Notes under the pieces: model-generated
Database searches by the model: none
What the model saw: the letters and a program-made list of their open reading frames with translations, nothing else
What the model was told of the DNA's origin: nothing
Shown: piece after piece, positions 15,921-44,692 of the stretch
How the letters are laid out: every line of letters begins with the position of its first letter
Numbering within the stretch: the first letter of the stretch is position 1
Source: an uncultured Candidatus Saccharibacteria bacterium
GTDB lineage: Bacteria; Patescibacteriota; Minisyncoccia; Phycocordibacterales; UBA9973
NCBI GenBank assembly: GCA_964408305.1
Contig: CAYOYW010000001.1
Span: forward strand, 11,410-62,280
Length of the DNA stretch: 50,871 nt
Direction: 5' to 3'
Translations under genes and position numbers: made by a program

Positions 15921-15923
15921 TCT

Positions 15924-16556
15924 ATGGCAATAAAAAGTAGTCCAACACAAGAATTTGTTCCTGTAAAAGAGATACGGGACGGTGTTATTGTCCTTAAGGA
16001 CGACACGCTCGCTTCTATTGTGCTTGTCTCTTCTATAAACCTCTCCCTTAAATCTTATGACGAACAACGAGCAGTCATTGGCCAGTTTCAAAACTTCCTT
16101 AATACACTCGACTTCCCAATGCAAATAGTGATCCAGTCACGAAGGTACGATGTACGGCCTTATATTCTCACACTTGAAAATCGCCTCAAACAACAAACCG
16201 AGCCGCTGTTGCGGGTTCAAACACAGGAGTATATTGAATTCATTCAAACCTTCACTGAACAAGTGAACATTATGAGGAAAAATTTCTTTGTCGTCGTACC
16301 ATACAACCCCTCAATTATTAGTCAGACAAGTGGGCTTGGAAAAATCTTTTCTTTCTTTGGAAAAAAACAAACAGCAGCAGATCTTACCGCAAGTTTTGAA
16401 GAACAACGAACACAATTAGAGCAGCGGATGAGTGTTGTTGAGCAGGGGCTTTCTCGACTCGGGCTTCGGGTTGCACAACTTGGCACACAAGAGGTGATTG
16501 AACTACTCTATAAAACATTCAATCCCGGAGAAACAACGGTCCATGCAGAGGGGTAA
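15924..16556 (+). CDS. hypothetical protein, possibly a free-standing VirB4 N-domain-like paralogue
   Basis: 210 aa, soluble. Its opening (VPVKEIRDGVIVLKDDTLASIVLVSSINLSLKSYDEQRAVIGQFQNFLNTLDFPMQIVIQSRR) has the same pattern as the N-terminal region of the adjacent ATPase (IEITSKSMRIGDKIVRTFFVISYPRYL...FDIAIFINPIE). The similarity was judged by eye only. Confidence 0.5.
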   Translation: MAIKSSPTQEFVPVKEIRDGVIVLKDDTLASIVLVSSINLSLKSYDEQRAVIGQFQNFLNTLDFPMQIVIQSRRYDVRPYILTLENRLKQQTEPLLRVQTQEYIEFIQTFTEQVNIMRKNFFVVVPYNPSIISQTSGLGKIFSFFGKKQTAADLTASFEEQRTQLEQRMSVVEQGLSRLGLRVAQLGTQEVIELLYKTFNPGETTVHAEG

Positions 16557-16597
16557 AGAAGCTTTTTTCTTTCTTTGTATAGTATACTCATAGTATT

Positions 16598-18424: not shown

Positions 18425-18448
18425 GAGTTTTGATGGTATACTTTTCTT

Positions 18449-19411
18449 ATGTACAAGAAACTCTGTATCGGAATTTCACTTATATTTTTCTTCATCACTC
18501 CTAGTTTTGCGCAGTTTGAAAACGCGAGCCTTGCGCCCGATATCTCCATTGTTGCTATACCAGAGAACCCAAAACCGGGGGAGACTGTAACGCTTGAAGC
18601 AATAAGCTACGGTGCTGATTTAAATCAGGCAAGTCTCATATGGAAATATAATGATAAAACCATTGCTTCGGGTATCGGTCGAACCAAAATAACACTCACT
18701 GCTCCTCGTACGAACTCTTCAGGATTTATTTCTCTTTCTGTTGGTGGTGCAGGTTTCCAGCAGACACAAATTGGATATACGCTTCGTTCTGCAAGTGTTG
18801 ACCTCCTCTGGGAAGCAATAGACTCATATACCCCTCCCTTCTACAAAGGAAAAGCGCTTCTTTCAAAAAATGCATTGGTACGGGTAACTGCTATCCAGAC
18901 AAGAAGTGCACCAAAGAACCTTTCTTTTGAGTGGTCACGAAACGACAGCGCTGTTCCAGCGTACTCTGGATATAACAAAAACGCATTGATTTTCAAGAAT
19001 GAAACACTAAAAAACGAGGAGCGGATTTCAGTAACAGCAAGTGGTGGACTCTTTAGTGGCAGTAAAAATCTTTCTTTGCTACCAGGAAAACCAACAATAC
19101 TCATGTATCAAAAAAAAGAGGGGTTTATTAACTATGCGAGAGGATATACGGATGATTTTGAAACAACTGATCCTGGTATTACACTTCGATTTGAGCCATA
19201 TTTCTTTTCGATACCAAGAGGGAGTATCTCAAAAGATCTCAGTTTCGACATAGAAAACAACAGTACTCCACTGTATGGGGAAAAAGAACAGAACGAAATT
19301 AGTCTCTCGAACCCAGGAAGCAGACAAAAGAGTGTGCTTCGTGTCTCGGTAAGTACAATCCTGTACTCACTGCAGAATGCTGCTCGATCTTTTTCGGTAT
19401 CTTTCAACTAA
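18449..19411 (+). CDS. secreted beta-rich hypothetical protein
   Basis: Signal peptide MYKKLCIGISLIFFFITPSFAQ and Ig-like repeated strands (PKPGETVTLEAISYG...). TATACT lies 6 nt upstream of the ATG. Confidence 0.6.
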   Translation: MYKKLCIGISLIFFFITPSFAQFENASLAPDISIVAIPENPKPGETVTLEAISYGADLNQASLIWKYNDKTIASGIGRTKITLTAPRTNSSGFISLSVGGAGFQQTQIGYTLRSASVDLLWEAIDSYTPPFYKGKALLSKNALVRVTAIQTRSAPKNLSFEWSRNDSAVPAYSGYNKNALIFKNETLKNEERISVTASGGLFSGSKNLSLLPGKPTILMYQKKEGFINYARGYTDDFETTDPGITLRFEPYFFSIPRGSISKDLSFDIENNSTPLYGEKEQNEISLSNPGSRQKSVLRVSVSTILYSLQNAARSFSVSFN

Positions 19412-23856: not shown

Positions 23857-23991
23857 TTAAACCGTTAGTTTTGCTCGTCCTTTTCGTCGGCGAGCAGTAA
23901 TAACCTTTCGGCCTTTTGCTGAGGCGCTTCTAACGAGAAAACCGTGCGCCTTCGCTCTTTTTCTCTTTTTTGGTTGGTATGTTTGAGACAT
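23857..23991 (-). CDS. rpmH: 50S ribosomal protein L34
   Basis: Below the track's length cut-off and in a different frame from track ORF 23865..24059. The reverse strand reads [44 protein letters not shown], a textbook L34, ending in TAA at 23857-23859. Confidence 0.9.
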
Positions 23992-24119
23992 ATAGTGAGA
24001 GCATTATACACAAAAAAAGCTGCTTTATCAAGCCTTACAGAGACTGCTATAATCAACACTATTCACAGGTTATCAACACTTTTGTTTTAGAACCCGTGCA
24101 TCGTATTATTAACCTATTC

Positions 24120-25466
24120 ATGGATATGGACACTAAACAACTCTGGAGTGATTGTCTCGAAGAAATAAAAAAAGAGGTAAGTGCTGGACATTTTAACACC
24201 TGGTTTAAAAACACCTCTTTAGTGAAAGAAGAGGATGGTATTGTTTTTATTGGTGTACCAAATGACTTTATAAAAGAGTGGATGGTAACAAAGTACCAGA
24301 AGTTAATTTTAAAAAGCCTTGTTTCTTTTATCGATACAATTCGTGGTGTCGAGTTCATTATTTCTCGAGTTGTAAAGGAAGAAGAAAAGAGAGAGTTACG
24401 AAGCGATCTTATAAAGAACGAACTTCCAATGCAAGATCTTTATGTAAATAGGGACGACAATCTTAACCCTCGATACACTTTTGATAAGTTTATTGTTGGT
24501 TCTTTTAATGAGCTTGCCTATGCTGCTGCACAGGCTGTTGTAAAACGACCCGGGCAAGCATATAACCCTCTTTTTATTTATGGAGCAAGCGGACTTGGTA
24601 AAACACACCTTATTCAAGCAATAGGGAATGAGATAAAAAAGCTTTATCCTGAAAAGAAGGTGCTTTATACAACACTGGAACGATTTATGAACGAATATGT
24701 TTCTTCTGTGCAGAACAGTCGATCAGTACCTTTTCGTGAAAAATATAGAAAATTTGATGTTCTTATTATTGATGATATTCAGTTTATTTCAGGTAAGGAT
24801 GGTACCCAAAACGAACTCTTTCACCTCTTTAATACACTCTACGAACAAGGAAAAAATATTATTTTTTCTTCTGACAAACACCCAAATCATATTATTGGTC
24901 TTGAAGATCGGTTAAAAACCAGGTTTAACGCTGGGATGACAATAGATATACAAGAACCGGATTTAGAGTCTCGTATGGCGATTATCAAAGAGAAAACATC
25001 TCTCCAACAAATAGATCTTGATGCTGAGGTGCTTGCTTTTATTGCTTCTTCAGTCACAGGGAGTATTCGAGAGATAGAAGGCATTATTAATATAATTTCT
25101 ATGCACGCCGAACTGAAACAAAAACCAATTTCTCTTCTTGAAGTAAAACAATTAGTAAAAAATAATATAAAGCCAAGAAAAAATATCTCTATTGAAAGTG
25201 TTGTTAAACAGATATCTGATTATTATAACCTTGATGAGCGAATTATTTATGAAAAAACAAGAAGGAAAGAGATTGTAAAAGCACGCCAGATGATTATGTT
25301 TATTCTGAGAGAAGACTTTAATGAATCATACCCTTCAATAGGATCAAAACTTGGTGGAAAAGACCATACAACAGTTATTCATTCTTATGAAAAAATAAAA
25401 AATGAACTCGAAGAAAACCCACTGCTTATGAAAGAACTTGAAGATATTCGTATTTTGTTTAAATAG
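24120..25466 (+). CDS. dnaA: chromosomal replication initiator DnaA
   Basis: Track ORF trimmed to MDMDTKQLWSDCLEEIKKEV... (ATG 24120; TATTAT 10 nt upstream). Walker A GASGLGKTHL, Walker B VLIIDDIQF, and the C-terminal DNA-binding motif GGKDHTTVIHS. Confidence 0.93.
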   Translation: MDMDTKQLWSDCLEEIKKEVSAGHFNTWFKNTSLVKEEDGIVFIGVPNDFIKEWMVTKYQKLILKSLVSFIDTIRGVEFIISRVVKEEEKRELRSDLIKNELPMQDLYVNRDDNLNPRYTFDKFIVGSFNELAYAAAQAVVKRPGQAYNPLFIYGASGLGKTHLIQAIGNEIKKLYPEKKVLYTTLERFMNEYVSSVQNSRSVPFREKYRKFDVLIIDDIQFISGKDGTQNELFHLFNTLYEQGKNIIFSSDKHPNHIIGLEDRLKTRFNAGMTIDIQEPDLESRMAIIKEKTSLQQIDLDAEVLAFIASSVTGSIREIEGIINIISMHAELKQKPISLLEVKQLVKNNIKPRKNISIESVVKQISDYYNLDERIIYEKTRRKEIVKARQMIMFILREDFNESYPSIGSKLGGKDHTTVIHSYEKIKNELEENPLLMKELEDIRILFK

Positions 25467-25652
25467 TGTGGATGACCTGTGGATGAGATATGAAAAAAAT
25501 GAAATAAAAAACATACAATGAAAATACTTTTTAAAAAAAATAAAATAATTCACAGCTTCATTATTAAAAATAATTTTGATAGTTAAGGTTTTTTAGAACA
25601 TTTTCCACAATTCACACCTCTTTATAGATATTGTTAAAAACTTTTTTAAAAT
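25467..25652. promoter_or_regulatory. candidate oriC: DnaA-box cluster plus AT-rich unwinding region
   Basis: TGTGGATGA occurs twice, 2 nt apart (25467-25475 and 25478-25486; the complement TCATCCACA is one mismatch from TTATCCACA). TTTTCCACA is at 25601-25609. The ~110 nt between them are extremely AT-rich (aaaaaaaataaaataatt...). It occupies the classical dnaA-dnaN intergenic position. Confidence 0.65.
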
Positions 25653-26750
25653 ATGAAATTACAATGTAAAACAGAACAACTAAAAAACGCTGTCGGAATT
25701 GCCGACAAAATGACAGGGAAAAATTTAACACTCCCAACACTTCATGCAATCCTTCTTGTTGCATCAGGAAAAAGTCTTAAGATTCGTTCAACAAATCTTG
25801 CAGTAGGTATAGAAATAGAAGTACCAGCTGTGATAGAAGAAGAGGGGATAATTCTTATAAAGGGAGATATTTTATCAAATGTTATTTCTAATATAGGTTC
25901 TAAAAACGATGTCACCCTTTTTCTTCAAGGAGAAAACCTTCTTGTAAAGAGTGAGGGTGTAAAATCTCTTATAAAATGTCTCCCACAAGATGAATTCCCA
26001 ACACTTCCAATTGTTGAGGGAGAGACTTTTGAAATAAAAAGCAGTCTTTTACAAGAAGGTATACGAGGGGTTTATTTTTCAGCGGCCACAACAGAAATTA
26101 AACCAGAGATTGCAAGTATTTTTCTTTATACAGAAAACGAAAACCTTTGTTTTGTTGCGACAGACTCTTTTAGATTGTCAGAGAAAAAAATAAAAGTAAA
26201 ACACATACCAGAGATATCAAAAATACTTATTCCTTATAAAAGTGTTTCAGATATACTACGAGTCCTTGAGCTTTATAGTGATGAGGTAAAGGTTACTTTT
26301 ACAAGAAATCAACTCTCTCTTTCAGGGAAAGGGATCTATTTTACAACACGGCTTATTGATGGAGCATTTCCTGACTACAGAATTATTATTCCAAAAGAGG
26401 AAAAAACAAAAGTTGTCCTTATGAAGCAAGAACTTCTAAATACACTCAGACTCTCAACTGTTTTTGCTGATAAATTCTTTCAAATAATATTTTCTGTTAA
26501 TCCAGATACAAAAAAGGTTACTGTACATTCAAACAACACCGATATCGGATCATCAGAATCTCTCATTGATGCGGTTATTACTGGTGAGGGAATAGAAGTT
26601 TCATTCAATCTGAAATATTTTCTTGATGTATTTCAAACGATCTCTGGAGACAGTATTTCTATTTCGTTTACAGAGCCAAACAAACCAATTGTTATAAAAG
26701 GTGTTCACGATCACTCTTTCCTTTATCTCCTTATGCCAACGAACAGGTAA
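25653..26750 (+). CDS. dnaN: DNA polymerase III beta sliding clamp
   Basis: 365 aa. Position after dnaA, a three-domain length, and motifs such as ATDSFRLSEKK and RLIDGAFPDYRIIIP. Confidence 0.92.
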   Translation: MKLQCKTEQLKNAVGIADKMTGKNLTLPTLHAILLVASGKSLKIRSTNLAVGIEIEVPAVIEEEGIILIKGDILSNVISNIGSKNDVTLFLQGENLLVKSEGVKSLIKCLPQDEFPTLPIVEGETFEIKSSLLQEGIRGVYFSAATTEIKPEIASIFLYTENENLCFVATDSFRLSEKKIKVKHIPEISKILIPYKSVSDILRVLELYSDEVKVTFTRNQLSLSGKGIYFTTRLIDGAFPDYRIIIPKEEKTKVVLMKQELLNTLRLSTVFADKFFQIIFSVNPDTKKVTVHSNNTDIGSSESLIDAVITGEGIEVSFNLKYFLDVFQTISGDSISISFTEPNKPIVIKGVHDHSFLYLLMPTNR

Positions 26751-33585: not shown

Positions 33586-34272
33586 TTTTTTATTATCTTC
33601 AATTTGTTTTGCTACGATATCTTTTTGTGCTTTCAACGAAGCTTTTTCAGGTGGCATAGAGGTATATATAACCGCGTCTGTTGCAAAAGAAATTTTTCCC
33701 ACCCTTTGGAGTGCGAGGGAGAGATAGAGATCTTCAGCTGGATAGTTGAGCTCTAGTTCTTTGTGTATTTTTAAAAAGGGAGTAAGTCCACTAACTTTTT
33801 CATAGTCTTTTTTTCGAAATGCGAGGTTTGAACCCCAAGCGAAAGCATGGTGCTTCTTGTGCCACAGTTTTCTATTCCATACAAATTGCCACCAACAAGA
33901 AAACTTCCAAAATAGACTATTTTGTATTTTTGTATATCCACCAACAATTGAAACAGCAGCATCCTCTCTGAGTGGGGTCGTTATGTTTTTTATCCAATCT
34001 CGATCTGCCCACGCATCCCCATCACTACAACAGATAATATCTCCCGTACAAGCTTCAATACTGCGTGCTCTTGCTACAATAATGCCACCTTCTTCAAAAC
34101 ACTCAACAGTTCTGACAGGGAACTTCTGCACAATAGTCTTTGTGTTATCAGTGCAATTATGCAAGAGCACGATAATCTCCGTAGGTTTCATACTTTGAGC
34201 AAGGAGGGCTTCTATACAGGCACTTATCGAGAACTCCTCATTGTGTGCAATTACTGCAATAGAGATTTTCAT
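33562..34272 (-). CDS. family 2 glycosyltransferase
   Basis: ISIAVIAHNEEFSISACIEALLAQS and a DxD-like CSDGDAW. 236 aa. Its 3' end overlaps the msrB 3' end. Confidence 0.85.
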   Translation of the reverse strand: MKISIAVIAHNEEFSISACIEALLAQSMKPTEIIVLLHNCTDNTKTIVQKFPVRTVECFEEGGIIVARARSIEACTGDIICCSDGDAWADRDWIKNITTPLREDAAVSIVGGYTKIQNSLFWKFSCWWQFVWNRKLWHKKHHAFAWGSNLAFRKKDYEKVSGLTPFLKIHKELELNYPAEDLYLSLALQRVGKISFATDAVIYTSMPPEKASLKAQKDIVAKQIEDNKKLFSFFKI

Positions 34273-34317
34273 AAGTCGAGTATAGCAAAAGAAGAAAAGC
34301 CCCTTTCGGGGCTCTTC

Positions 34318-34560
34318 TTAATAATCAGTTCTATCTCCGTACGGGTTGAGTATTGCTTCCTCAAACTCTTTATCATTACCAAAGTATCCGTGTTCACTAT
34401 CTTCTTCAGAATCTTCTTCTGATTCTTCACCAACAACTTCGTCGGTGTGCTCTTCTGCCTCATCGTCTCCATGGATGAGGTCTGCATCAGCTTTCTTTTT
34501 TATACCGAGAGCATCAATCTCTCCTTCATCAACATGTTCTTCTTGATCAAATTCACTCAT
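34318..34560 (-). CDS. highly acidic 80-aa hypothetical protein
   Basis: By hand count, 32 of 80 residues are D or E (…EESEEDSEEDSEH…). Same strand as ruvB-ruvC upstream and the GT2 gene downstream. Confidence 0.55.
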   Translation of the reverse strand: MSEFDQEEHVDEGEIDALGIKKKADADLIHGDDEAEEHTDEVVGEESEEDSEEDSEHGYFGNDKEFEEAILNPYGDRTDY

Positions 34561-34612
34561 TGCGCAAAATTTTTACTATTTTGTAATGCAATAAGTTGTA
34601 TCAAAAAGTATT

Positions 34613-35131
34613 TTATTTTGCAAGAGCTTTTTTTCTCTTTTCAACACGCAAGAGCTCGAGCGCTGTTACACCGAGTGCTATTGCGTCAATCTCATCATCG
34701 AGCCGTTTTGTTTTTAGTAGCGCGACGGTGAGTGTCACCATTTTTTCTACCTGTACTTTACTAGCATTTCCAGAACCAGTGAGTGCGAGTTTTATGGCTT
34801 GGGGAGAGACTTCTAGTACAGGAAGGTCGCATATACCTGCAAGTGCAAAGAGTGCACCACGAACTTCGGCAACACGCATGGCGGTACTTTTATTCACAGA
34901 GAAAAAGAGTGTTTCAAGTGCGAGAACATTCGGTTGATATGTTTGTATAAGATTCTCGACCGCATCAAAAATACTCTGTACCCGTTTTGGGTGCTCATCT
35001 TTTTTTTGGCTTGTGACACAGGTAGAGAAGAGTACTGTTGGTTTTTCTCCTCGCTTTGTCATAAAAGCAACACCACAGCGATCATACCCAGGATCTATTG
35101 CAAGAACCACCTCTTTTTCTTCACTACTCAT
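34613..35131 (-). CDS. ruvC: crossover junction endodeoxyribonuclease RuvC
   Basis: VLAIDPGYDRCGVAF (catalytic Asp), ETLFF, and a C-terminal DDEIDAIALG. Its ATG overlaps the ruvB TGA stop (ATGA). Confidence 0.88.
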   Translation of the reverse strand: MSSEEKEVVLAIDPGYDRCGVAFMTKRGEKPTVLFSTCVTSQKKDEHPKRVQSIFDAVENLIQTYQPNVLALETLFFSVNKSTAMRVAEVRGALFALAGICDLPVLEVSPQAIKLALTGSGNASKVQVEKMVTLTVALLKTKRLDDEIDAIALGVTALELLRVEKRKKALAK

Positions 35132-36102
35132 CTTTTTTTGTTTAAATACTCTTTTCCTTTTTCGGTGAGCGTTCTCCCTCTTGGTGTCCGCTCAACAAAA
35201 CCAAGTTGGATAAGATAGGGTTCGACCACATCCTCGATCGTTCCCTCATCTTCTCCAAGGGCTGCAGCAAGATTTTTTACTCCAACCGGACCTCCACCAA
35301 ACTTGTCTTTTATTGTTTCCATGAGAAGCCTATCGTGCACACCAAGTCCGTGCTCATCAAGACCGAGGAGTTCAAATGCTGTTTGTACAGTAGCAGCATC
35401 AATAGTGCTTTTATTCATTTGTGCGTAGTCTCGTACCCTTCTAAGAAGGTAGTTTGCTATTCTTGGTGTTTGTCTGCTTCGCTTTGCAATTTCAGTAATC
35501 TCCTGCTCCTCGAGTGTAATATTTAAAATACCAGCACTTCTTGCAATGATCGTTTCTATCTCTTCTGGTGTATAAAAATCAAGACGGAATGTTCCTCCTG
35601 AAAAACGACTTCGGAGGGGTGAGGAGAGCATACCAAAGCGAGTTGTTGCAGCAAGTAATGTGAATGGAGGAAGCTCAAGTTGCACTGTGCGAGCAGAGGG
35701 CCCTTTCCCAATCATAATGTCGAGTTTTCCAGTCTCCATAACAGGGTAGAGCACTTCTTCTATTGTTTTATTGAGTCTGTGTATCTCATCTATAAAGAGC
35801 ATGTCACCCGGAGAGAGGTTGGTAAGCAGTGCTGCAAGATCACCAACGCGTTCTATCGATGGACCAGAAGTAATTTTAATATTTGCCCCTGCTTCTTTTG
35901 CAATAACATGTGCAAGTGTTGTCTTTCCAAGACCTGCTGGGCCATAAAAGAGTATATGTTCAGGGTTGTGGCCACGCTCTTTCGCTGCTCCTATAAGAAT
36001 AGAGAGATTTTTTTTGATATTGTTTTGACCAATGTATTCAGTGAAGGAGAGTGGACGCAGTACATTGTCGCTAAATTGTTCTTCTTGGGGTGTGCTTGAC
36101 AT
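35128..36102 (-). CDS. ruvB: Holliday junction branch migration ATPase RuvB
   Basis: LRPLSFTEYIGQ, Walker A GPAGLGKTTLA, Walker B LFIDEIHRL, sensor TTRFGMLSSPLRSRF, and a winged-helix C-terminus. Confidence 0.93.
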   Translation of the reverse strand: MSSTPQEEQFSDNVLRPLSFTEYIGQNNIKKNLSILIGAAKERGHNPEHILFYGPAGLGKTTLAHVIAKEAGANIKITSGPSIERVGDLAALLTNLSPGDMLFIDEIHRLNKTIEEVLYPVMETGKLDIMIGKGPSARTVQLELPPFTLLAATTRFGMLSSPLRSRFSGGTFRLDFYTPEEIETIIARSAGILNITLEEQEITEIAKRSRQTPRIANYLLRRVRDYAQMNKSTIDAATVQTAFELLGLDEHGLGVHDRLLMETIKDKFGGGPVGVKNLAAALGEDEGTIEDVVEPYLIQLGFVERTPRGRTLTEKGKEYLNKKR

Positions 36103-36124
36103 ATTTTTGTGACTGTGCTATATT
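36096..36124 (+). promoter_or_regulatory. near-consensus sigma70-type promoter facing the ruvB-pilB intergenic region
   Basis: TTGACA (36096-36101), a 17-nt spacer ending in TGc, then TATATT (36119-36124). It overlaps the first codons of ruvB on the other strand. Confidence 0.5.
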
Positions 36125-36130
36125 GATAGC

Positions 36131-36302
36131 AGATCGGTAACAACACTATTTTACAGCAAGAAGCTATAAATCTCTAAGCAGTCAGCCTCGGTTCTAAGTA
36201 TAGGCGCAGGACGCCTTGGTTTCGACTGGAGCTATCCTACAATCATGCTTTACGTATGTTGCCTTGTCCTCATACGGACTGTTTAGAGATTTATAGTTTT
36301 TT
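36131..36302 (+). ncRNA. candidate structured small RNA of unknown class (~170 nt)
   Basis: A 20-bp closing stem pairs ctataaatctctaagcagtc (36164-36183) with gactgtttagagatttatag (36277-36296). It has one G-U pair on the + strand, which would be a C-A mismatch on the - strand. The stem is followed directly by TTTTTTGTATTTT. Internal hairpins include ggcg-cagga-cgcc and cgtatg...catacg. The promoter listed above lies upstream. No ORF. Confidence 0.4.
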
Positions 36303-36327
36303 GTATTTTAGGGCACCTAGCGCTTTA

Positions 36328-38028
36328 CTAGTCCTCCTGTAGATCAACAACACTTTTCACTTCTTCAAAATCAGTAATACCTTGGAGTATTTTTACAAGA
36401 CCGTCCTCTTTCATATCGAGGTAACCCTGTTTTTCTGATATTTTTTTGATCTCTCTTTCGCTTAGGTTTTGGGTAATAACTTTTTCAATAGCTTCATCAG
36501 TCTTGATCACTTCAAATATACCAAGCCGTCCTTTATAGCCGGTGTTGTTACACTTTTCACACCCTTTTGCCCTCCAGAGTTTTTGGATATCTTTCGTTAC
36601 CCCAAAAGAAGTCATGTCTTTACCTTCTGAAACTGCTTGATCCCAAATGGCGTCAATAATCTTTCGCTCTTCTTCAGTGACCGGTTGTTCTTCTCTACAA
36701 GCGGTACAAAGTTTTCGTACAAGTCGTTGCGCAATAGAGAGCGTAAGTGCGGAGACTAAAATCTTTGGGTTCACTTCAAGGTCAATGAGTCGAGGAATCA
36801 CACCTTGTGCATTGTTCGTGTGCAGTGTCGAGAACACCATATGTCCAGTGAGTGCAGATTCTACGGCTATTTTTGCTGTTTCGGGATCTCGGATTTCTCC
36901 CACCATAATGACATCAGGGTCTTGTCGTAGCGCACTACGGAGTCCTTCGAGGAAGGTGTACCCTTTTTTGTGGTCGGTCTGTGTTTGTGTAATACCAGCG
37001 AGGTGGTATTCGATAGGGTCTTCAATGGTGATAATCTTTTTTTCTGGAGAATAAATTTTTTGCAGGAAAGCATAGAGTGTTGTCGTTTTACCAGATCCGG
37101 TCGGACCAGTAAGAAGGATCATCCCGTTTGGTTTTTTAATTTCTTCAGTAAAGAGAGCAAAGAGTGGGGGAGAAATACCAAGCTCTTCGAGTTTTACATG
37201 AATAGACTTTGGATTAAGGATACGGAGCACAATACTCTCGCCGTATGCGCCTGGTATCATTGAAGTACGAAAACTAATCTCGTCTTCACCAAGAAATGCA
37301 CTAAAGCGACCATCTTGAGGGTTGCTTGAAATAGTAAGTTTCATTCCTGAAAGAAGCTTGATACGAGTATTTATTTGTTTATAGGTTTCAAAATCAAAGT
37401 AGGTAATTATTTGAAGCACACCATCGAGACGAAAGCGAAGCTCCACTTTGTCTTCCATTGGCTCAACATGTACATCAGAAGCACCAATACCAATACCAGC
37501 ACCAAGGACGATTTCTAGTATTCTTGAAATATGTTGCTTTGCATCTTTTTCACCGATCGCAGTCTCTATCTCCAGAACCGCATCAGCCGTCGTTTTTATT
37601 TTTTTACTAAGTTCTGCCAAGATATCCTGGGAAATATCGAGTCCTCCTTTTCGAGAGGTTGTTGCAAATGAAAGATCTTGATACCTTCCCCACACTTTTT
37701 CAATACTTTTGTGTGATGCCATTACCATGGTTACAACAAAACCTTTCGCTTCAAGCACCTCTTTTGCTTTTACCGCTCCTTCTGCAAGAGGAGAGAGGAC
37801 TGCGAGAAAAAGCTTCTTCCCGATAAGTTTATAGGGGCCAACACCAAAGGTGCGGGCTTCGTTTTCAGAGAGAAGTCTGATGGCGTCATTATCAATAGGC
37901 TGTGAAGATAAGTCGATATAATCGAGGTCATACTTATCTTGCGCGAGCATTGCAACGAGGTTCTCTTCCTCGCCATCGCGCAGCTCATGGAGGCGCTTTT
38001 GTTGTTCATCTTCATTGAAACGGACCAT
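36328..38028 (-). CDS. pilB: type IV pilus / type II secretion assembly ATPase (PilB/GspE family)
   Basis: N-terminal GSPII_E_N-like domain, Walker A LLTGPTGSGKTTTLY, Asp box, Walker B VIMVGEIRD, His box TGHMVFSTLHTN, and a tetracysteine CTAC...CEKC. TATACT lies 9 nt upstream (38038-38043, reverse strand). Confidence 0.88.
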   Translation of the reverse strand: MVRFNEDEQQKRLHELRDGEEENLVAMLAQDKYDLDYIDLSSQPIDNDAIRLLSENEARTFGVGPYKLIGKKLFLAVLSPLAEGAVKAKEVLEAKGFVVTMVMASHKSIEKVWGRYQDLSFATTSRKGGLDISQDILAELSKKIKTTADAVLEIETAIGEKDAKQHISRILEIVLGAGIGIGASDVHVEPMEDKVELRFRLDGVLQIITYFDFETYKQINTRIKLLSGMKLTISSNPQDGRFSAFLGEDEISFRTSMIPGAYGESIVLRILNPKSIHVKLEELGISPPLFALFTEEIKKPNGMILLTGPTGSGKTTTLYAFLQKIYSPEKKIITIEDPIEYHLAGITQTQTDHKKGYTFLEGLRSALRQDPDVIMVGEIRDPETAKIAVESALTGHMVFSTLHTNNAQGVIPRLIDLEVNPKILVSALTLSIAQRLVRKLCTACREEQPVTEEERKIIDAIWDQAVSEGKDMTSFGVTKDIQKLWRAKGCEKCNNTGYKGRLGIFEVIKTDEAIEKVITQNLSEREIKKISEKQGYLDMKEDGLVKILQGITDFEEVKSVVDLQED

Positions 38029-38102
38029 TGCTTCTAAAGTATAGCCTAAAATAAGAGTTTTTTCTCGGTTTTTCTATCTTAAAAAGGTAGCAATAAAGGA
38101 CA

Positions 38103-38131
38103 TTGACAAAAGCTTCTGTTTGTGCTATCAT
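38103..38131 (+). promoter_or_regulatory. consensus-like sigma70 promoter upstream of the compositional-outlier gene
   Basis: TTGACA (38103-38108), a 17-nt spacer, then TATCAT (38126-38131). This predicts a ~33-nt leader, unlike the very short leaders implied for most other genes here. Confidence 0.5.
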
Positions 38132-38170
38132 TTACTCAGAAAAAAAATTGTTAAACCAAATCATTTTCTC

Positions 38171-39160
38171 ATGAAAAAGATTAAAGTTCTTTTACTCGCC
38201 GTGTGCCTGTTTGGCGCAACGGCTCATATGAAAGCGCAAAAACAACAGTATGTGAAGTTTACCTCCATTCCCGAAGATGCAACCGCAAGCCAGAAGGGTT
38301 CAATGCTGAAAAAAGCCATGAAAGGAGAACAGATACCGGGCGCTAGCGTTCGTGCATCTGCTGATTCCTACACTGCAGTTTTCGGCCAGGATACCTACGA
38401 CAAGGTGATGAAGGCAAAAAACCTGATCATCGGTCCGGCAAAAGGTGGTGAAAAAAACTTCGCTATCGGACCTAACGGCCCGGAACAATCAGGAACACTG
38501 AAAGAAGGCACAGAAATCATCTCTCTGCCCGATGGAACTCCTGTTGCAAAGGTTGGTACGAATTTCTGTTTCAATGCACTGTTACCGGCTGACGCCATTG
38601 CCGCAGATGATGGAGAAGATGAAGACAACCAGATCGTTGTTAAAAAGGATAAAACCAAGACAGCGAATACTGGAGCTCCAACCATCATTAATGTGGGAAC
38701 ACAAGGTAATCAGCAGGAATTGACCTGGTCGGCAGGATATGCCGTGTATTCAACAGGTCGCAATGACCGCCAAAACGATTTTGTGGTGGACGCTGCGCTG
38801 TACAAAATGATCCAGGATTCCAAGCAATGCTGCACGGGGGGTACAACGAATGTTGCTACTACACCAACACCGTATGCTATTACTACACCGGCAGCTACTG
38901 GAGCACAACAGGTAGTGTATGTACAGAAACAAAGTGTTCCGTTCGGGCAGACCTTTATAGGGCAGACCCTTGCTAATGGAACCGGATATGTTCTGGGGAC
39001 ATATACCGTCCGGGGTATCGACGCCCTTGCCGGCAGAATTGCCAGCAACAACGGGTATCGCTATCTGTACACACCGACAACAAACCAATCTGGCGATTTC
39101 GAACCATCTAACCAGCAGGGAAACTATGACAACACCTGGCGACTCGGTAATGGTAACTAA
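38171..39160 (+). CDS. secreted hypothetical protein with atypical composition (candidate foreign gene)
   Basis: Track ORF trimmed to MKKIKVLLLAVCLFGATAHMKAQ (signal peptide). 329 aa, rich in Q/N/T/G. It uses CTG, CCG, GCC and GGC codons frequently, which I saw only rarely in the genes I compared. Hand tallies of three 60-nt lines gave 43-53% GC, versus ~40% in flanking genes. No family recognised. Confidence 0.65.
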   Translation: MKKIKVLLLAVCLFGATAHMKAQKQQYVKFTSIPEDATASQKGSMLKKAMKGEQIPGASVRASADSYTAVFGQDTYDKVMKAKNLIIGPAKGGEKNFAIGPNGPEQSGTLKEGTEIISLPDGTPVAKVGTNFCFNALLPADAIAADDGEDEDNQIVVKKDKTKTANTGAPTIINVGTQGNQQELTWSAGYAVYSTGRNDRQNDFVVDAALYKMIQDSKQCCTGGTTNVATTPTPYAITTPAATGAQQVVYVQKQSVPFGQTFIGQTLANGTGYVLGTYTVRGIDALAGRIASNNGYRYLYTPTTNQSGDFEPSNQQGNYDNTWRLGNGN

Positions 39161-39177
39161 AGCGCTTTTCGTATGAT

Positions 39178-39198
39178 GGAGATGGCCAAGCCATCTCC
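39178..39198 (+). terminator. GC-rich hairpin terminator after the outlier gene
   Basis: ggagatggc / caa / gccatctcc forms a perfect 9-bp stem 18 nt after the stop codon. It is followed by tcattcttt. Confidence 0.6.
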
Positions 39199-39300
39199 TC
39201 ATTCTTTAGAGTCTTATCAAAGATAGGGCTCTGTAGAGTGATAATCGTTATAAGAATAATTAAAAAAATTATCCATTATAATATAAAGAGTAAAACATAT

Positions 39301-41331
39301 ATGAAAAAATTTATTATTTCGACAATCTTCGCATTCTTTGGGCTAGCAACACTAGCTTCTTCAGCACATGCGCAGGCTGTCTTTAACAATCCGGGTCCAA
39401 TGCCGACCCTTACTATTTCGAATTCAACACGAACAGTCTGTAACTACGGACCTATTACTGGTTGTTGGCAACCTACAACAACAGCACAGCCAGGTGATGT
39501 TGTTGCTGTCCAGGTGCATTACAAAAATACCAGTACTACCGCAGCACAAGGAACAACACTCTCAATATCACCTCGAACTTCTAGTGCAGTAAGTGCACTC
39601 AATTTTTATGGGGGCGTTGCCTCTCTCTCAGGTCCTCGAGCAACAGGAAATGCATCAGTAAGTATTTCAAGTTCGCAAACAGTGACTTATATTGCTGGCT
39701 CAGCAAAGTGGTACCCAAGTGCAACAAGTGGTTCACGACCAGTTGATGACGCTGCGCTTTTTGGCACAAGTGGTTTCAATGTTGGTACTGTAAACCCAGG
39801 AGAACAAGGGGCACTCGTTGCTTTCTTTAAGATCGGAAACACAACAACGCAAACTTATCAATGTAACGATGGTATTGATAACGATAGTGATGGTCTCATC
39901 GACTATCCAGCTGATCCTGGCTGTTCATCTTCAACAGATAATGATGAATATAACAGTGGGCAGTCACAGCAGTGTGTGATTGATAGCTTCTATGCTTCTC
40001 CAACACAAGTAAGTCCTGGTGGAAATACAACACTGTATTGGAATACAACAGGTTGTACCAGCCTTACTATCGATGGTATTTCTTACCCGATTGATGGATC
40101 AGGTGTCTTTGGACCACTCTACCAGAGTCGCTCATACCAACTTCAAGCTTCTGGCTATGGATACAGCCCAACAAGTTCTGTTGTGGTTACCGTAAACCAA
40201 ATCAACCAAACAACATATCAATGTAATGATGGATATGATAACGATGGTGATGGAAGAATTGATTATCCGAACGACCCTGGCTGTTCATCTTATTATGATA
40301 ATGATGAATATAATCCCGTTATAAACCCAACAACATATCAATGTAATGATGGATATGATAACGACAGTGACGGAAAGGTAGACTACCCAAATGATCCTGG
40401 TTGTTCATCTTACTATGATAATGATGAATACAACCAAGTAGTAAGCACTCAACTTCAAGCGATTACTACAACACCAAGTGCTATTGGGCAGACAACAGCA
40501 CGCCTCAATGGTATTGCCGTTTCAAACTACGGGTATGCAACAACTGCATGGTTTGAATGGGGCACCAGTGCTTCGTTTGGAAATAGAACAGGAAGCCAGT
40601 CTGTAGCAAGTGCAACAAGTGGTACTTACTACACTGACACAATTTCAGGACTTGTTCCAGGTGGTGTGTACTACTACCGAGCAGTTGTTCAAAATCAAAC
40701 AGGAATTTCATATGGAGAACCTGTTCGATTTCAAACAGATAAAGGTGCGGTTGTACTTCCTCCAAAAGTAGTAACACAGGTAGTGAAGAACAATGTTGTT
40801 GTTGCAAAGAGCGCAGCATCACTCCTTGAGCTCCGAGTTGATAACTCATACGACCGAATGTGTGTTGGGGGAGATATGAACTACAGTGTTTCTTATCGAA
40901 ACATAAGTGGTCAAACACTCCAAAACGCAGTGCTTCGAATTACTCATCCAAAAGAGCTCACCTTTATCAATAGCTCTAAAGGGGATTATGAGGTTGTTGA
41001 CCGAACAGTAACTATTGCACTTGGCGATATTCGACCAGGAGAGCAAGGTGTGGTTCAGGTACGAGCTCGAGTGAACAACCAAGCTATTTCTGGAAATCTT
41101 GCAGTAACAACAGCAACAGTGGTTTACACAAATACTGTTTCGAAGGCACAAGAAGATGCAATTGCATACTCGCTTATCACTGTTTCAGACGACTGTCCTA
41201 GTGGTCTCGGTGCAAGCGCCTTCGGTGCAGGATCGTTCCTCCCATCAACACTGCTTGGATGGCTCCTTCTTATCCTTATTATCCTTGCGCTTATCGTGAT
41301 TGCACGACAGCTCTACAAGAAAAAGGCATAA
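39301..41331 (+). CDS. large surface protein with Cys/Asp-rich repeats, DUF11/CARDB-like beta domains and an LPxT-type C-terminal anchor
   Basis: Track ORF trimmed to MKKFIISTIFAFFGLATLASSAHAQ (signal peptide). Three TYQCNDGxDNDxDGxxDYPxDPGCSSxxDNDEYN modules. The C-terminus ...FLPSTLLGWLLLILIILALIVIARQLYKKKA has an LPST motif, a hydrophobic helix and a basic tail. Confidence 0.75.
   Translation: MKKFIISTIFAFFGLATLASSAHAQAVFNNPGPMPTLTISNSTRTVCNYGPITGCWQPTTTAQPGDVVAVQVHYKNTSTTAAQGTTLSISPRTSSAVSALNFYGGVASLSGPRATGNASVSISSSQTVTYIAGSAKWYPSATSGSRPVDDAALFGTSGFNVGTVNPGEQGALVAFFKIGNTTTQTYQCNDGIDNDSDGLIDYPADPGCSSSTDNDEYNSGQSQQCVIDSFYASPTQVSPGGNTTLYWNTTGCTSLTIDGISYPIDGSGVFGPLYQSRSYQLQASGYGYSPTSSVVVTVNQINQTTYQCNDGYDNDGDGRIDYPNDPGCSSYYDNDEYNPVINPTTYQCNDGYDNDSDGKVDYPNDPGCSSYYDNDEYNQVVSTQLQAITTTPSAIGQTTARLNGIAVSNYGYATTAWFEWGTSASFGNRTGSQSVASATSGTYYTDTISGLVPGGVYYYRAVVQNQTGISYGEPVRFQTDKGAVVLPPKVVTQVVKNNVVVAKSAASLLELRVDNSYDRMCVGGDMNYSVSYRNISGQTLQNAVLRITHPKELTFINSSKGDYEVVDRTVTIALGDIRPGEQGVVQVRARVNNQAISGNLAVTTATVVYTNTVSKAQEDAIAYSLITVSDDCPSGLGASAFGAGSFLPSTLLGWLLLILIILALIVIARQLYKKKA
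39853..40434 (+). repeat. intragenic ~102-nt module in three copies (39853-39954, 40213-40314, 40333-40434)
   Basis: Copies 2 and 3 are exactly 120 nt apart. They are near-identical except mostly for synonymous third-position changes and the xGxx residues. Copy 1 is more diverged. Confidence 0.85.
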
Positions 41332-41355
41332 TAAAGATACAAAAAAAGAATGCAT

Positions 41356-41382
41356 AAAACCCTGCCAGAGAGGCAGGGTTTT
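41356..41382 (+). terminator. rho-independent terminator of the surface-protein gene
   Basis: aaaaccctgcc / agaga / ggcagggtttt forms an 11-bp stem ending in T residues, 25 nt after the stop. Confidence 0.65.
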
Positions 41383-41400
41383 ATGCTACTATGGCTTTAT

Positions 41401-41850
41401 ATGAAGCGATCATACTCACAAAAAGAGCTTTCTGAGGTAGCAAGAGAAGTGCTCTCTTCTATTAAACCGCTTGATGATAAGGCAACTGTTATCGCTCTGT
41501 ATGGGGAGCTTGGTGCAGGAAAAACAACACTCGTGCAGGCTATTGCATCAGAGCTTGGTGTTGAAGAGCTTGTGGTGAGCCCTACTTTTGTGATCGCAAA
41601 GTGGTATAAAACTAATGCCAACACCTTCTACACACTAGTGCACATTGATGCTTACCGTATTGACTCAGAAGAAGAAATGAAAATACTTGGCTTTACTGAG
41701 CTTTTAAAACAACCTCGGGCACTCGTGATAGTAGAATGGCCAGAAAAAATACCAGAAACACTTTCAACGCTTCATGTAGAAATGTTTACGCTTCACCATG
41801 ATGGAGAAGTTAGAGTGATTGAAGGACCGTTACCGTATGAAGGAAAGTAA
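41401..41850 (+). CDS. tsaE: tRNA t6A37 biosynthesis ATPase TsaE (YjeE)
   Basis: Track ORF trimmed to MKRSYSQ... because 41350-41400 contains the upstream terminator. TACTAT lies 8 nt upstream. Walker A GELGAGKTTLVQ, plus SPTFVI and HIDAYR. Confidence 0.85.
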   Translation: MKRSYSQKELSEVAREVLSSIKPLDDKATVIALYGELGAGKTTLVQAIASELGVEELVVSPTFVIAKWYKTNANTFYTLVHIDAYRIDSEEEMKILGFTELLKQPRALVIVEWPEKIPETLSTLHVEMFTLHHDGEVRVIEGPLPYEGK

Positions 41851-44212
41851 CAAAAAAGAAAAGCACAAAAAACAAACACTGGTGATACTTGATGCACACG
41901 CAATTATTCACCGTGCATACCACGCACTTCCTTCTTTCACTAAATCTGATGGGGAACCAACGGGAGCACTCTACGGTGTTGCAACAATGACACTGAAACT
42001 CATCGAATCTTTTAAGCCCGACTATATTGTTGCGGCATTTGATCTTCCTAAGCCAACATTTCGTCATGAATCATATAAGGCATATAAAGCGGGGCGAGCA
42101 AAGGCAGAAGATGCTCTCGTTGCGCAACTACAAACTGCAAGAGAGCTTTTTGCAGGATTTAATATTCCTGTTCTCGATGCAGAAGGGTTTGAGGCTGACG
42201 ATGTTATTGGTACGCTCGTAGAGCAGTACAAAAAAGAAAAAGATCTCGACATTATCATTGCTTCTGGAGATATGGACACCATGCAACTCATTGAAGGTAC
42301 AAAGGTCCGAGTTTTTACCTTACGAAAAGGGCTTAATGACACAGTTATTTATGATGAATCAGAGGTGTTGAAGCGGTTTGGCTTTAAACCAGCACAACTT
42401 GTTGACTACAAAGGACTCCGCGGAGACCCATCGGATAACATTATTGGTGTTCCTAGTATTGGGGAAAAAACAGCAACAACAATTATTACCACCTGTGGTT
42501 CTATTGAGAAACTCTATGAAATGCTTCATAAAAAAAGAGAAACACTCCTTAATGCAGGCATCACCGAGCGAATACTAAAGCTTTTAGAGGAACATAAAGA
42601 CGATGCGCTTTTTTCAAAAACACTTGCAACAATCAGACGAGATGCGCCTCTTTCATATACACTCCCACAAGAAACATATCTTGCATCTGTTGATACAAAA
42701 CAGCTTCTTGAGGTTTTTGGAAAATATGAATTTAGAAGCTTAAACCATAGAGTCAAAAAGATTTTTTCAATTGAAGAGGATATCTCTCCAGAGGAGACAA
42801 ACCTCGACGAAGCACTACTCCAAAGAGTAAGTGTTGCACTCTGGGTACTCTATTCAGAAAATACAACCCCTTCCTACGACACTATTCTTCAAAAAACAAA
42901 AGCAAAAAATCTTGCCGAAGCATGGCAAATTATTCAGGAAGAACTCTCAAAGAGAAACCTGTCAGCAGTTTTCTCAAAAATAGAAGAGCCACTTATTCCA
43001 ATTATTTCAGAGATGGAAAAGACCGGGATTCTTGTTAACAAGGTGTTGCTTGAACAGACAAAAAAAGAAATACAAAAAAGGTTGGCAGAAATAGAAAAAG
43101 CGGTCACTGAGCATGTTGGGAAGAGTATCAACCTTAATTCACCCAAGCAACTTTCGGAACTTCTCTTTGGGTCTCTTGGATTAAAACCAAAAGGAAAGAA
43201 AAAGGAAAGCGGTGCTTTTACGACAAATGCTGAAGCACTCGAAACACTGAAAGATGAGCACCCAGTTATACCGCTTATTCTTGAACACCGAGAACTGCAA
43301 AAGATTCTTTCAAGCTATCTTGAAAGCCTCCTTGAACATATTGGGCAAGATGGAAGAATTCATGCAAAGTTTTTTCAGCACGGTACAACAACAGGCAGGT
43401 TTTCTTCTGCGGATCCAAACCTCCAAACGATTCCTGCAAGTGGAACATGGGGCCGCTTAGTACGAAGAGCTTTTATTGCAAAACCAGGGTCTGTTTTTAT
43501 TAGTTGTGATTATTCTCAGATTGAACTGAGGGTCTTGGCAATGCTCTCGGGTGATGAAAAACTCGTTGCTTCTTTTGAGAGAGGGGACGATATTCATAAT
43601 GCTGTTGCTTCTATTGTGTTTGGTGTTTCTTCAAAAGAAGTCACGCCTGATATGAGACGAAGCGCAAAGGTAATTAACTTTGGCATTATTTATGGTATGG
43701 GAGTTTCTGCGCTCCAAAAGAATCTTGGAACAACAAGGGAAAAAGCACAGCAATTCTACGATGAATACTTTGCTGCATTTCCAACAATTAAGAACTACCT
43801 CGAAAGTACCAAGGAATATGCACGAGTACATGGGTATACTGAAACAGCATTTGGTCGGAGAAGATACTTTCCAACGATCACTTCAAAACTTCCATTTCTC
43901 CGTTCCTTTGCAGAGCGAATGGCATCAAATGCGCCACTCCAGGGCACAGCGGCTGATATTATTAAGCTTGCAATTATTGCCATTGATAATGCACTAAGAG
44001 TGAGAGGTTTTGTAGGGAAGGCAGATCTTGTGCTCCAAGTACACGATGAGCTGGTTTATGAAGTAGAAGAGGCCTGTGCCCGAGAGGTTAATGCAATTAT
44101 CATTCAGTCTATGATTGGGGTCATTGATCATTCACCGGTTCCACTAACGCTTACAAATGTCCCTCTTACTGTTTCGAGCTCGACAGGGGCAAACCTCGAC
44201 GAAACAAAGTAG
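41837..44212 (+). CDS. polA: DNA polymerase I (5' nuclease + polymerase domains, short intervening region)
   Basis: 5' nuclease motifs LVILDAHAIIHRAYHA and GDPSDNIIGVPSIGEKTA. Polymerase motif A ISCDYSQIELRVLA, motif B RRSAKVINFGIIYG, motif C LQVHDELVYE. Start taken at MKESNKK (14-nt overlap with tsaE). Confidence 0.92.
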   Translation: MKESNKKEKHKKQTLVILDAHAIIHRAYHALPSFTKSDGEPTGALYGVATMTLKLIESFKPDYIVAAFDLPKPTFRHESYKAYKAGRAKAEDALVAQLQTARELFAGFNIPVLDAEGFEADDVIGTLVEQYKKEKDLDIIIASGDMDTMQLIEGTKVRVFTLRKGLNDTVIYDESEVLKRFGFKPAQLVDYKGLRGDPSDNIIGVPSIGEKTATTIITTCGSIEKLYEMLHKKRETLLNAGITERILKLLEEHKDDALFSKTLATIRRDAPLSYTLPQETYLASVDTKQLLEVFGKYEFRSLNHRVKKIFSIEEDISPEETNLDEALLQRVSVALWVLYSENTTPSYDTILQKTKAKNLAEAWQIIQEELSKRNLSAVFSKIEEPLIPIISEMEKTGILVNKVLLEQTKKEIQKRLAEIEKAVTEHVGKSINLNSPKQLSELLFGSLGLKPKGKKKESGAFTTNAEALETLKDEHPVIPLILEHRELQKILSSYLESLLEHIGQDGRIHAKFFQHGTTTGRFSSADPNLQTIPASGTWGRLVRRAFIAKPGSVFISCDYSQIELRVLAMLSGDEKLVASFERGDDIHNAVASIVFGVSSKEVTPDMRRSAKVINFGIIYGMGVSALQKNLGTTREKAQQFYDEYFAAFPTIKNYLESTKEYARVHGYTETAFGRRRYFPTITSKLPFLRSFAERMASNAPLQGTAADIIKLAIIAIDNALRVRGFVGKADLVLQVHDELVYEVEEACAREVNAIIIQSMIGVIDHSPVPLTLTNVPLTVSSSTGANLDETK

Positions 44213-44230
44213 GTGATACAATAGAGCTAT

Positions 44231-44692
44231 ATGGAACCAAAACAGCAACCATCGGTACACCAAGTGCTTGCGCAATCATACCTTGTGTACTTTTTGCTCT
44301 GTAGCATAGGCCTTTTTGTTGATCTTATTATTCCTTTTACTATCAGTATGCCGTATAGTCTTCCGCTTGCGATTATCTTTTTTGCGCTTGGTCCGGCACT
44401 TATTTTTTGGGCACAGTACACCTCTTGGCGTTTTGAAAAAATAAAACAGCAAACAGGCAGACCAGACTTTAGCCGTGGACCGTATCGCTTTTTAAGAAAC
44501 CCAACACAGTTTGGCCTTGTACTACTTGTCGCAGGCTACGCTTTTGCGAGCCGAGCAGCAATGCTTTTTGTTGCAACAGGAGTTGCATACCTCATCTCAA
44601 ATATCTTCTTTCGAAAACACGAAACAATTCTTGAATCAAAATATGGAGAAGACTACCAGTCTTACAAAAGCTCGGTTCCTAAAATAATGTAA
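44231..44692 (+). CDS. isoprenylcysteine carboxyl / phospholipid methyltransferase family membrane protein
   Basis: 4 TM helices and GPYRFLRNPTQFGLVLLVAGYAF, the ICMT/PEMT-type motif. Confidence 0.7.
   Translation: MEPKQQPSVHQVLAQSYLVYFLLCSIGLFVDLIIPFTISMPYSLPLAIIFFALGPALIFWAQYTSWRFEKIKQQTGRPDFSRGPYRFLRNPTQFGLVLLVAGYAFASRAAMLFVATGVAYLISNIFFRKHETILESKYGEDYQSYKSSVPKIM

Follow-up and report, generated by a model that had tools for sequence, protein, structure and literature searches.

How does a single gene of foreign-looking composition come to lie between a pilus-motor gene and a surface-protein gene on a low-GC chromosome? The question is raised by a stretch of 50,871 nucleotides (hereafter the window) from an uncultured Candidatus Saccharibacteria bacterium (contig CAYOYW010000001.1, positions 11,410 to 62,280), in which a first-pass annotation, made by reading the letters, singled out one coding sequence (CDS), here called X, as a one-gene compositional island: a secreted orphan with foreign codon usage, a promoter and a terminator of its own, which could have been acquired horizontally as a surface or host-interaction factor or produced by faulty assembly or binning. 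From its setting in related genomes we propose that X is probably the gene now occupying a conserved replacement locus, one that takes a single gene for a secreted protein and whose occupants are diversified by recombination.

Composition of X and integrity of the locus

The assembly that holds the window (G000; 914 kb, 77 contigs, 88.8% complete) is visibly mixed in GC content, and CDS X was therefore compared only with contigs of 34-43% GC, of which there are 31 (623 kb) with 418 open reading frames (ORFs) of at least 150 amino acids; these serve as the native reference. X has a GC content of 0.482, the third highest of the 418, where the mean is 0.403 (z 2.5), and its GC content at third codon positions (GC3) is 0.461 against 0.321 (z 2.5; rank 15), or rank 8 of 418 when the GC3 excess is corrected for amino-acid content. 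CTG accounts for 9 of its 17 leucine codons against 6% in native ORFs (rank 1 of 411), and CCG for 8 of its 15 proline codons against 14% (rank 3 of 314). GCC (23% against 9%) and CAG (61% against 35%) are raised as well; GGC, which had also been named as frequent, is hardly so (20% against 15%). The atypical codons are distributed along the entire CDS, the signal peptide included. With the statistics computed, X is a true compositional and codon-usage outlier, as had been claimed for it.

High expression was rejected as the cause of this bias, ribosomal-protein and EF-Tu genes having ordinary or low GC3 (0.25-0.39) and low use of CTG (7%) and CCG (13%). The codon signatures nearest to that of X belong to hsdM and hsdR (G000:C15:11490-13958 and 15554-19138; L044 and L045), which are CTG- and GAA-rich like X, and to the equally CTG-/GAA-rich L046 (G000:C1:4776-6743), which lies just upstream of the window and encodes a 654-aa membrane protein of unknown function. 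Type I restriction-modification genes such as hsdM and hsdR are typical mobile cargo, and these three genes and X may belong to the same foreign compositional class.

The contigs of the assembly span 34% to 76% GC, those of about 40% being mixed with many of 55-76% (C10, C11, C22, C24, C25, C31, C32, C61, C72, C75 and others), despite a quality figure of 0.25% contamination; genome-wide statistics drawn from it need contig filtering. So mixed a bin lends some colour to the suggestion that a fragment of another organism was joined into the contig. However, the same gene with the same neighbours was recovered in two independent assemblies from other samples, L002 (Logan assembly, SRR12486998; protein 96% identical) and L003 (ENA assembly ERZ650241), and alignment to these two served as the test of the junctions on either side of X. 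Both differ from the window by 2-2.6% at the DNA level (97-98% identity), and therefore come from other strains, and the alignment runs unbroken over both junctions. The arrangement recurs, moreover, in more than 20 related loci, and a chimera is in our judgement vanishingly unlikely.

A conserved slot beside pilB

In these more than 20 loci the gene order is ruvC-ruvB-pilB on the minus strand followed by X, a DUF11 surface-protein gene, tsaE and polA on the plus strand, so that pilB is transcribed divergently from X. Both neighbours had been recognized from the sequence, and Pfam confirmed them as PilB/T2SSE and as a large DUF11-containing surface protein. PilB identity is 99.1-99.5% in the conspecific assemblies L002 and L003 and 69-84% across the genus, and the DUF11 gene follows the slot in all loci.

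When 1.84 billion representative proteins were searched with a profile, 49 protein clusters matched, and X can no longer be called an orphan. Among 200 sampled genomes of the window's family, matches were found in 11 of the 32 from the same genus (several of the 11 being 96-100% complete), with one copy in each, and outside the genus in one or two genomes of two other genera; a further 400 genomes, covering 320 genera of the phylum, gave no match, and a metagenome scan with a narrower alignment returned a single locus. Every member of the family whose context was read sits in the slot between pilB and the surface-protein gene. The comparison of this interval in relatives, as the first-pass annotation had proposed, found the slot filled in every congener examined: even in five high-quality congeners that the profile did not match, it contains one or two secreted-protein genes, whose products, laid out much as in X, have a signal peptide and an N-domain that ends in a C-x-N-like motif, then a stretch rich in P/Q/T and a tail rich in G/N/S/Y. 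X belongs to a small undescribed secreted-protein family that is locus-bound beside pilB in one Paceibacterota genus.

Some congeners have a second small secreted-protein gene (155-195 aa) in the slot, upstream or downstream of the main one (Table 1). In one congener the slot-gene match (G091:C1:107464-108495; L011/L022) was reported with an in-frame TGA, which could represent a broken allele or an effect of the match boundary.

The transcription signals predicted for X, namely TTGACA-17-TATCAT, a short leader and a 9-bp GC-rich terminator, are all in place (Table 1). The stem of the terminator includes 6 G-C pairs and precedes a T-rich tail (folding z-score -4.8), and the hairpin is identical in the window, L002 and L003. 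These signals had been taken as marks of foreign origin. In an alignment of 19 loci from the genus, however, all 19 have TTGACA and an extended -10 box in the corresponding position ahead of the slot gene, and the great majority also have a hairpin followed by ttctattctttag in matching position. With the slot filled and both signals conserved there, the locus has a frame that is ancestral in the genus, and the signals were not imported.

Between the -10 box and the ATG of X lie 39 nt, giving a leader of about 33 nt, and the leaders of the aligned congener slot genes are similar in length, a AAAATTTTTAAC-like motif occurring among them. No Shine-Dalgarno sequence was seen in the slot leaders of the window (38140-38170), L006, L007, L020, L031 and L033. 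Several slot leaders have in common an A/T-rich motif resembling AAAATTTTTAAC(T/C)(T/C)TTAAA, which may be a translation or regulatory signal. We also surveyed 528 ORFs on the core contigs of the assembly, window included, for -10-like boxes (TAnnnT, at least 5 of 6 matches). These peak 5-9 nt before the ATG, with 96 against about 15 per 5-nt bin, and such a pile-up suggests that leaderless transcripts are widespread in the core contigs, from which X with its leader differs. The first-pass annotation had made the same contrast, and qualitatively it stands, although it applies to roughly a fifth to a quarter of the genes and not to most of them.

The recent insertion of a single foreign gene from outside the lineage, perhaps from a host bacterium, together with its own promoter and terminator, would be in keeping with the most extreme CTG usage of the genome, a GC3 excess within the top 2% and the likeness in codon signature to the restriction-modification genes of the same genome. 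The preference for CTG, CCG, ATC, TTC, GAA and CAG is also one that we take to resemble Bacteroidales usage. Such an insertion is nevertheless difficult to reconcile with a slot that is filled in all congeners and whose promoter and terminator are conserved, with homologues that occur only in the genus and one or two sister genera and always at the slot, and with a core motif that X has in common with the slot genes of its congeners. Neither a tRNA gene (in 34000-44500) nor a flanking direct repeat nor a mobility gene is present, and X has housekeeping genes for neighbours. Of the features of a classical insertion island, the atypical composition was found; an empty site in relatives and the hallmarks of insertion were not. 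We regard this origin as improbable. A Bacteroidota source judged by the style of the signal peptide was likewise rejected, the neighbouring native surface protein having A-x-A-Q too and the family being confined to the genus.

Modular organization and replacement between close strains

Members of the family are built from interchangeable parts. The N-domain is of type A (as in the window; ...VAKWGTNGCLNAL), of type B (KSGILKKDxYG...YWLSFSCGNL) or of rarer types; the core reads ELxWxxGYxxYSxGRNDRxxD...IQxxKxCC or is replaced by alternatives, the core motif of X being present in about 30 of the 49 clusters and other cores in the remainder; and the C-terminal part is of type C1 (VPFGQTFGGQLLAN...VRGIDAL) or C2 (NVTVRNKANGWD...), followed by a G/N/Q/Y-rich tail. 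All four combinations of N-domains A and B with C-terminal types C1 and C2 exist. Homology between N-domains A and B was not found by hhalign (probability 0.3%), and the notion that they are diverged alleles was rejected on that ground.

Comparison of close strains revealed where the parts are replaced. The window and L003 are 97.9% identical up to 38869, after which 297 nt in the former and 267 nt in the latter are unalignable, and from 39167 the identity is again 95.5%; the CC motif immediately precedes the break, which is closed by DNTWR and the terminator. In the pair L004 and L024 the flanks are 95-100% identical while X identity is 27-70%. Here the replaced tract begins about 17 nt downstream of the ATG and ends about 45 codons short of the stop, where identity returns sharply to about 99%, and one strain has N-domain B with an RNDRQ core and the other N-domain A with a different core. 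Similarly, the protein P0005 and that of L037 have an identical signal peptide and a near-identical C-terminal half, and N-domain B in one and A in the other.

Synonymous divergence (dS) was measured against L002. For ruvB, pilB and the surface-protein gene the values are 0.09-0.12; within X, dS is 0.048 in codons 1-222, a lowering that is not significant (p = 0.08), 0.37 in codons 223-260, raised relative to the flanks (Fisher p = 0.002), and 0.06 in codons 261-329. The most divergent of these tracts, that of codons 223-260, contains an imperfect 24-nt tandem (TTNVATTP / TPYAITTP) at 38843-38889. Breakpoints coincide with conserved segments and dS is uneven along X; no donor-recipient pair was identified among the sequences compared. 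Sharp replacement of content between close strains makes recombinational exchange the simplest explanation, and part of the DNA of X was plausibly acquired horizontally in this way. The suggestion of a horizontally acquired surface or host-interaction factor is thus retained in part: the content is replaced between close strains and the product carries a secretion signal, whereas an insertion from outside the lineage is not supported.

The replacement locus that we propose would operate as follows. Throughout the genus the slot between pilB and the DUF11 gene would always be occupied by a gene whose product, of about 300-400 aa, is secreted by the Sec pathway, within a fixed frame made up of the near-consensus promoter, the leader lacking a Shine-Dalgarno sequence, the signal peptide and the hairpin terminator. 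Between these fixed ends would lie a mosaic of interchangeable modules (N-domain, core, C-terminal type and tail). New versions would arise by homologous recombination with DNA of other strains or species, the crossovers falling within the conserved frame and at short conserved motifs; the signal-peptide segment is a probable left anchor. The allele in the window would look foreign in its GC3 and its CTG and CCG usage since it has shared no long-term mutational history with the low-GC chromosome.

Cassette-like variation with conserved anchors is also what would be expected if the variants were made within the genome, from silent cassettes of the pilE/pilS type or by a diversity-generating retroelement. 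CPR (candidate phyla radiation) genomes often carry such retroelements, and there is one reverse-transcriptase gene in the assembly. This gene, the sole one, is on contig C42, the GC content of which is 55% and which probably belongs to another organism. No second copy of the family modules and no repeated X DNA was found in the window's own assembly, all 43 tblastn matches of family proteins to the window's own genome fall in the slot, and the 11 congeners matched by the profile have, as noted, one match each. The changes, furthermore, are replacements of whole modules and not adenine-directed point changes. An intragenomic source seems to us very improbable.

Slot and host composition across the genus

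Host GC3, taken from pilB, tsaE and polA together, ranges from 0.17 to 0.56 across the loci. Regression over 20 loci gave a slope of 0.38 (r 0.59) for the GC3 of the slot gene on that of the host, and of 0.99 (r 0.93) for the adjacent DUF11 gene, which is also fast-evolving, although these loci are from related lineages and not independent, and the fit overstates their independence. In low-GC genomes (the window, L006, L020 and L022) the GC3 of the slot gene is above that of its flanks, the window being the extreme case at +0.14, and in high-GC congeners it is below by 0.08-0.17. The simplest reading would be that the content of the slot stands outside the long mutational history of the chromosome, being repeatedly replaced from a wider pool.

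Alternatively, X might evolve vertically and very fast in place, its composition being set locally, for instance by GC-biased gene conversion at a locus of intense recombination or by unusual selection on the mRNA. A GC3 above the flanks in low-GC genomes is as biased conversion predicts, and slot genes do share some biases relative to their own flanks, all 18 loci examined having less CTC and GAC, and 17 of the 18 more AGA. Nor is any inter-species segment of X more similar than PolA. GC-biased conversion has, however, no explanation for the lowered GC3 in high-GC congeners; unalignable modules with sharp edges between flanks of 95-100% identity are beyond point mutation; and N-domains A and B have no detectable homology. 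On balance we consider vertical evolution to be an unlikely account of the locus.

Several points weigh against the replacement locus as we propose it, in addition to the non-independence of the loci and the non-significant dS of codons 1-222. With no inter-species segment of X above PolA similarity, exchange between species is inferred from composition only. A donor lineage for the allele in the window was not found, and its preference for CTG, CCG, CGC and ATC is unlike that of the host and also unlike that of the average congener slot gene. The C-terminal two thirds of X were modelled at low confidence. Finally, the 88.8%-complete assembly yielded no ComEC (PF03772); DprA is present on the native-GC contig C18, and natural transformation is plausible as the route of uptake.

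Protein sequence and predicted structure

The product of X is predicted to be secreted by the Sec pathway, which is supported by a signal peptide, noticed already in the first-pass annotation, that ends HMKA before Q; the pattern of MKK, a hydrophobic run and (T/N)KA followed by Q is common to all homologues. The N-terminus is MKKIKVLLLAVCLFGATAHMKA followed by QKQQ, and the prepilin motif (G before F-x-x-x-E) is absent from X and likewise from its homologues. A type IV pilin or minor pilin was rejected, there being no class III (prepilin) signal in either. No family-wide lipobox and no C-terminal membrane anchor was found in the X family. The C1 module is rich in Gly and of moderate hydrophobicity; that of some members (e.g. 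P0043) is clearly membrane-like.

AlphaFold with 17 sequences gave a confident alpha/beta N-domain (residues 22-140, predicted local distance difference test (pLDDT) 70-90) and low confidence beyond it, save for a proposed long helix over the core motif; with 6 homologues the pLDDT was 28. Foldseek returned no fold match (best E-value 0.83 against PDB and 0.17 against BFVD), none of 47 family members matched Pfam, NCBIfam and PHROGs yielded nothing credible, and a PDB sequence profile search and Rfam gave no match.

The features of the locus are collected in Table 1. Elsewhere in the window, the stretch 23970-26750 has the lowest GC content (0.29-0.32). It contains dnaA and dnaN, is ordinary in appearance and probably represents the replication-origin region.

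Table 1. Features of the X locus, in window coordinates, and second slot genes of congeners, in the coordinates of the locus named
Feature	Position	Strand	Basis or remark
pilB, type II/IV secretion ATPase, left flank	36328..38028	-	Pfam T2SSE, E-value 7e-118
Near-consensus sigma-70-type promoter, TTGACA-17-(TG)TATCAT	38103..38131	+	11/12 matches
Stretch from -10 box to ATG with the A/T-rich leader, lacking a Shine-Dalgarno sequence	38132..38170	+	Sequence reading
CDS X, secreted mosaic protein with atypical codon usage	38171..39160	+	329 aa frame, ATG at 38171
Signal peptide MKKIKVLLLAVCLFGATAHMKA, then Q	38171..38239	+	Sequence reading; MKK, hydrophobic run, ...HMKA, then Q
N-domain type A, residues 24-145, ending ...VAKVGTNFCFNAL	38240..38605	+	Conserved ~120 aa in ~25 family members
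Linker, acidic and T/K/N-rich, residues 146-181	38606..38713	+	pLDDT <50; poor alignment across family
Core motif QELTWSAGYAVYSTGRNDRQNDFVVDAALYKMIQDSKQCC, residues 182-221	38714..38833	+	Most columns invariant in 6 homologues
P/T-rich hyperdivergent tract, residues 223-260	38837..38950	+	Against L002, dS 0.37, non-synonymous divergence (dN) 0.13
C-terminal cassette type C1 (VPFGQTFIGQTL...VRGIDALAG and G/N/Q/Y-rich tail ending DNTWRLGNGN)	38870..39166	+	Unalignable C2-type cassette in conspecific
Intrinsic-terminator hairpin GGAGATGGC-CAA-GCCATCTCC, then TCATTCTTTA	39178..39198	+	Right boundary of variable tract
Large surface protein, right flank	39301..41331	+	Pfam DUF11; Cys/Asp-rich repeats, C-terminal membrane anchor
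Second slot gene, L034	2000-2584		
Second slot gene, L035	2043-2579		
Second slot gene, L036	3155-3742		
Second slot gene, L041	4417-4884		

Comparison with known systems

The nearest known parallel to the X locus would appear to be the replacement flexible genomic island, here on the scale of a single gene. In aquatic prokaryotes homologous recombination is involved in the diversity of such islands, examples being the O-chain and flagellar-glycosylation islands of Alteromonas (PMC4033161). Like these, the X locus has a constant chromosomal position and content that is unrelated or very divergent, within sharp boundaries, even in near-identical strains; the role, that of an exposed structure, is presumably the same, atypical composition is frequent in the islands, and exchange is proposed to occur by recombination in the flanks. 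The X locus differs in being a single gene of about 1 kb and not a multi-gene cluster, in having its proposed crossovers inside the gene (signal peptide, core motif and C-terminal tail), with modules that assort independently, and in its bearer, a Paceibacterota bacterium that is ultra-small and probably episymbiotic.

A similar way of working is found in transformable pathogens, whose mosaic surface-protein genes, among them pneumococcal PspA/PspC and neisserial Opa/PorB, owe their diversity to transformation and recombination. As in X, the products are secreted or surface-located, blocks of different ancestry meet at conserved segments and diversity within the species is high. X has no sequence or fold similarity to them, and its alternative N-domains are not detectably homologous and hence not diverged alleles. 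With DprA found and ComEC not found, transformation is for the bearer of X only a possibility, unlike in those organisms, and, again unlike for those proteins, we know of no link of the X family with an immune system.

Bacteriocins of the colicin and pyocin type are modular too, their domains being shuffled by recombination. They resemble X in their atypical composition and in their build, in which a linker joins a variable N-terminal module (in X, one that might bind a target) to a C-terminal module that is Gly-rich and in part hydrophobic. X differs in that the gene downstream encodes a conserved surface protein and not an immunity protein, in its Sec signal peptide, in the absence of similarity to known bacteriocin domains and in occupying a fixed chromosomal slot and not a plasmid or prophage-like element.

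Within the CPR, a hypervariable surface-protein gene has been described from a Gracilibacterium, in which nucleotides vary in a tandem PTD tripeptide repeat while the amino acids are kept (PMC6851277). That gene is, like X, hypervariable at the strain level, predicted to specify an extracellular product and flanked by stem-loops. In X, whole non-repetitive domains are replaced, which is a different mechanism.

Possible role and significance

As a matter of method, a single-gene compositional island need not be an insertion: the frame can be ancestral, and only the content turn over. The decoupling of slot GC3 from host GC3, seen here across a genus whose host GC3 covers the range given above, is a simple measure by which other replacement loci might be found.

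Because of its strong promoter, its secretion signal, its pilus-ATPase and surface-protein neighbours and its extreme diversity, we infer that the product of X would be abundant and exposed, and that diversifying or frequency-dependent selection would act on it where the cell meets its host or phages. It may serve to bind or permeabilise host cells. Perhaps the slot gene is a determinant of host specificity, its non-homologous N-domains (A, B and others) binding different structures of host cells and its C-terminal module anchoring in or permeabilising the membrane, but this we put forward tentatively and think rather unlikely. If it is true, the exchange of a cassette would switch or widen the host range, or permit escape from recognition by host and phage, and a compact recognition system with swappable modules would lie beside the pilus motor.

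To our knowledge no member of the Paceibacterota has been cultivated with its host, and we know of no determinant of host attachment in this group. In Saccharibacteria, type IV pili drive the episymbiotic association (PMC9894109, PMC12206443). X, strongly promoted, predicted to be secreted, polymorphic and present in single copy beside pilB, is a concrete candidate for a molecule of this interface, one that can be tracked in metagenomes and may be expressed for binding tests.

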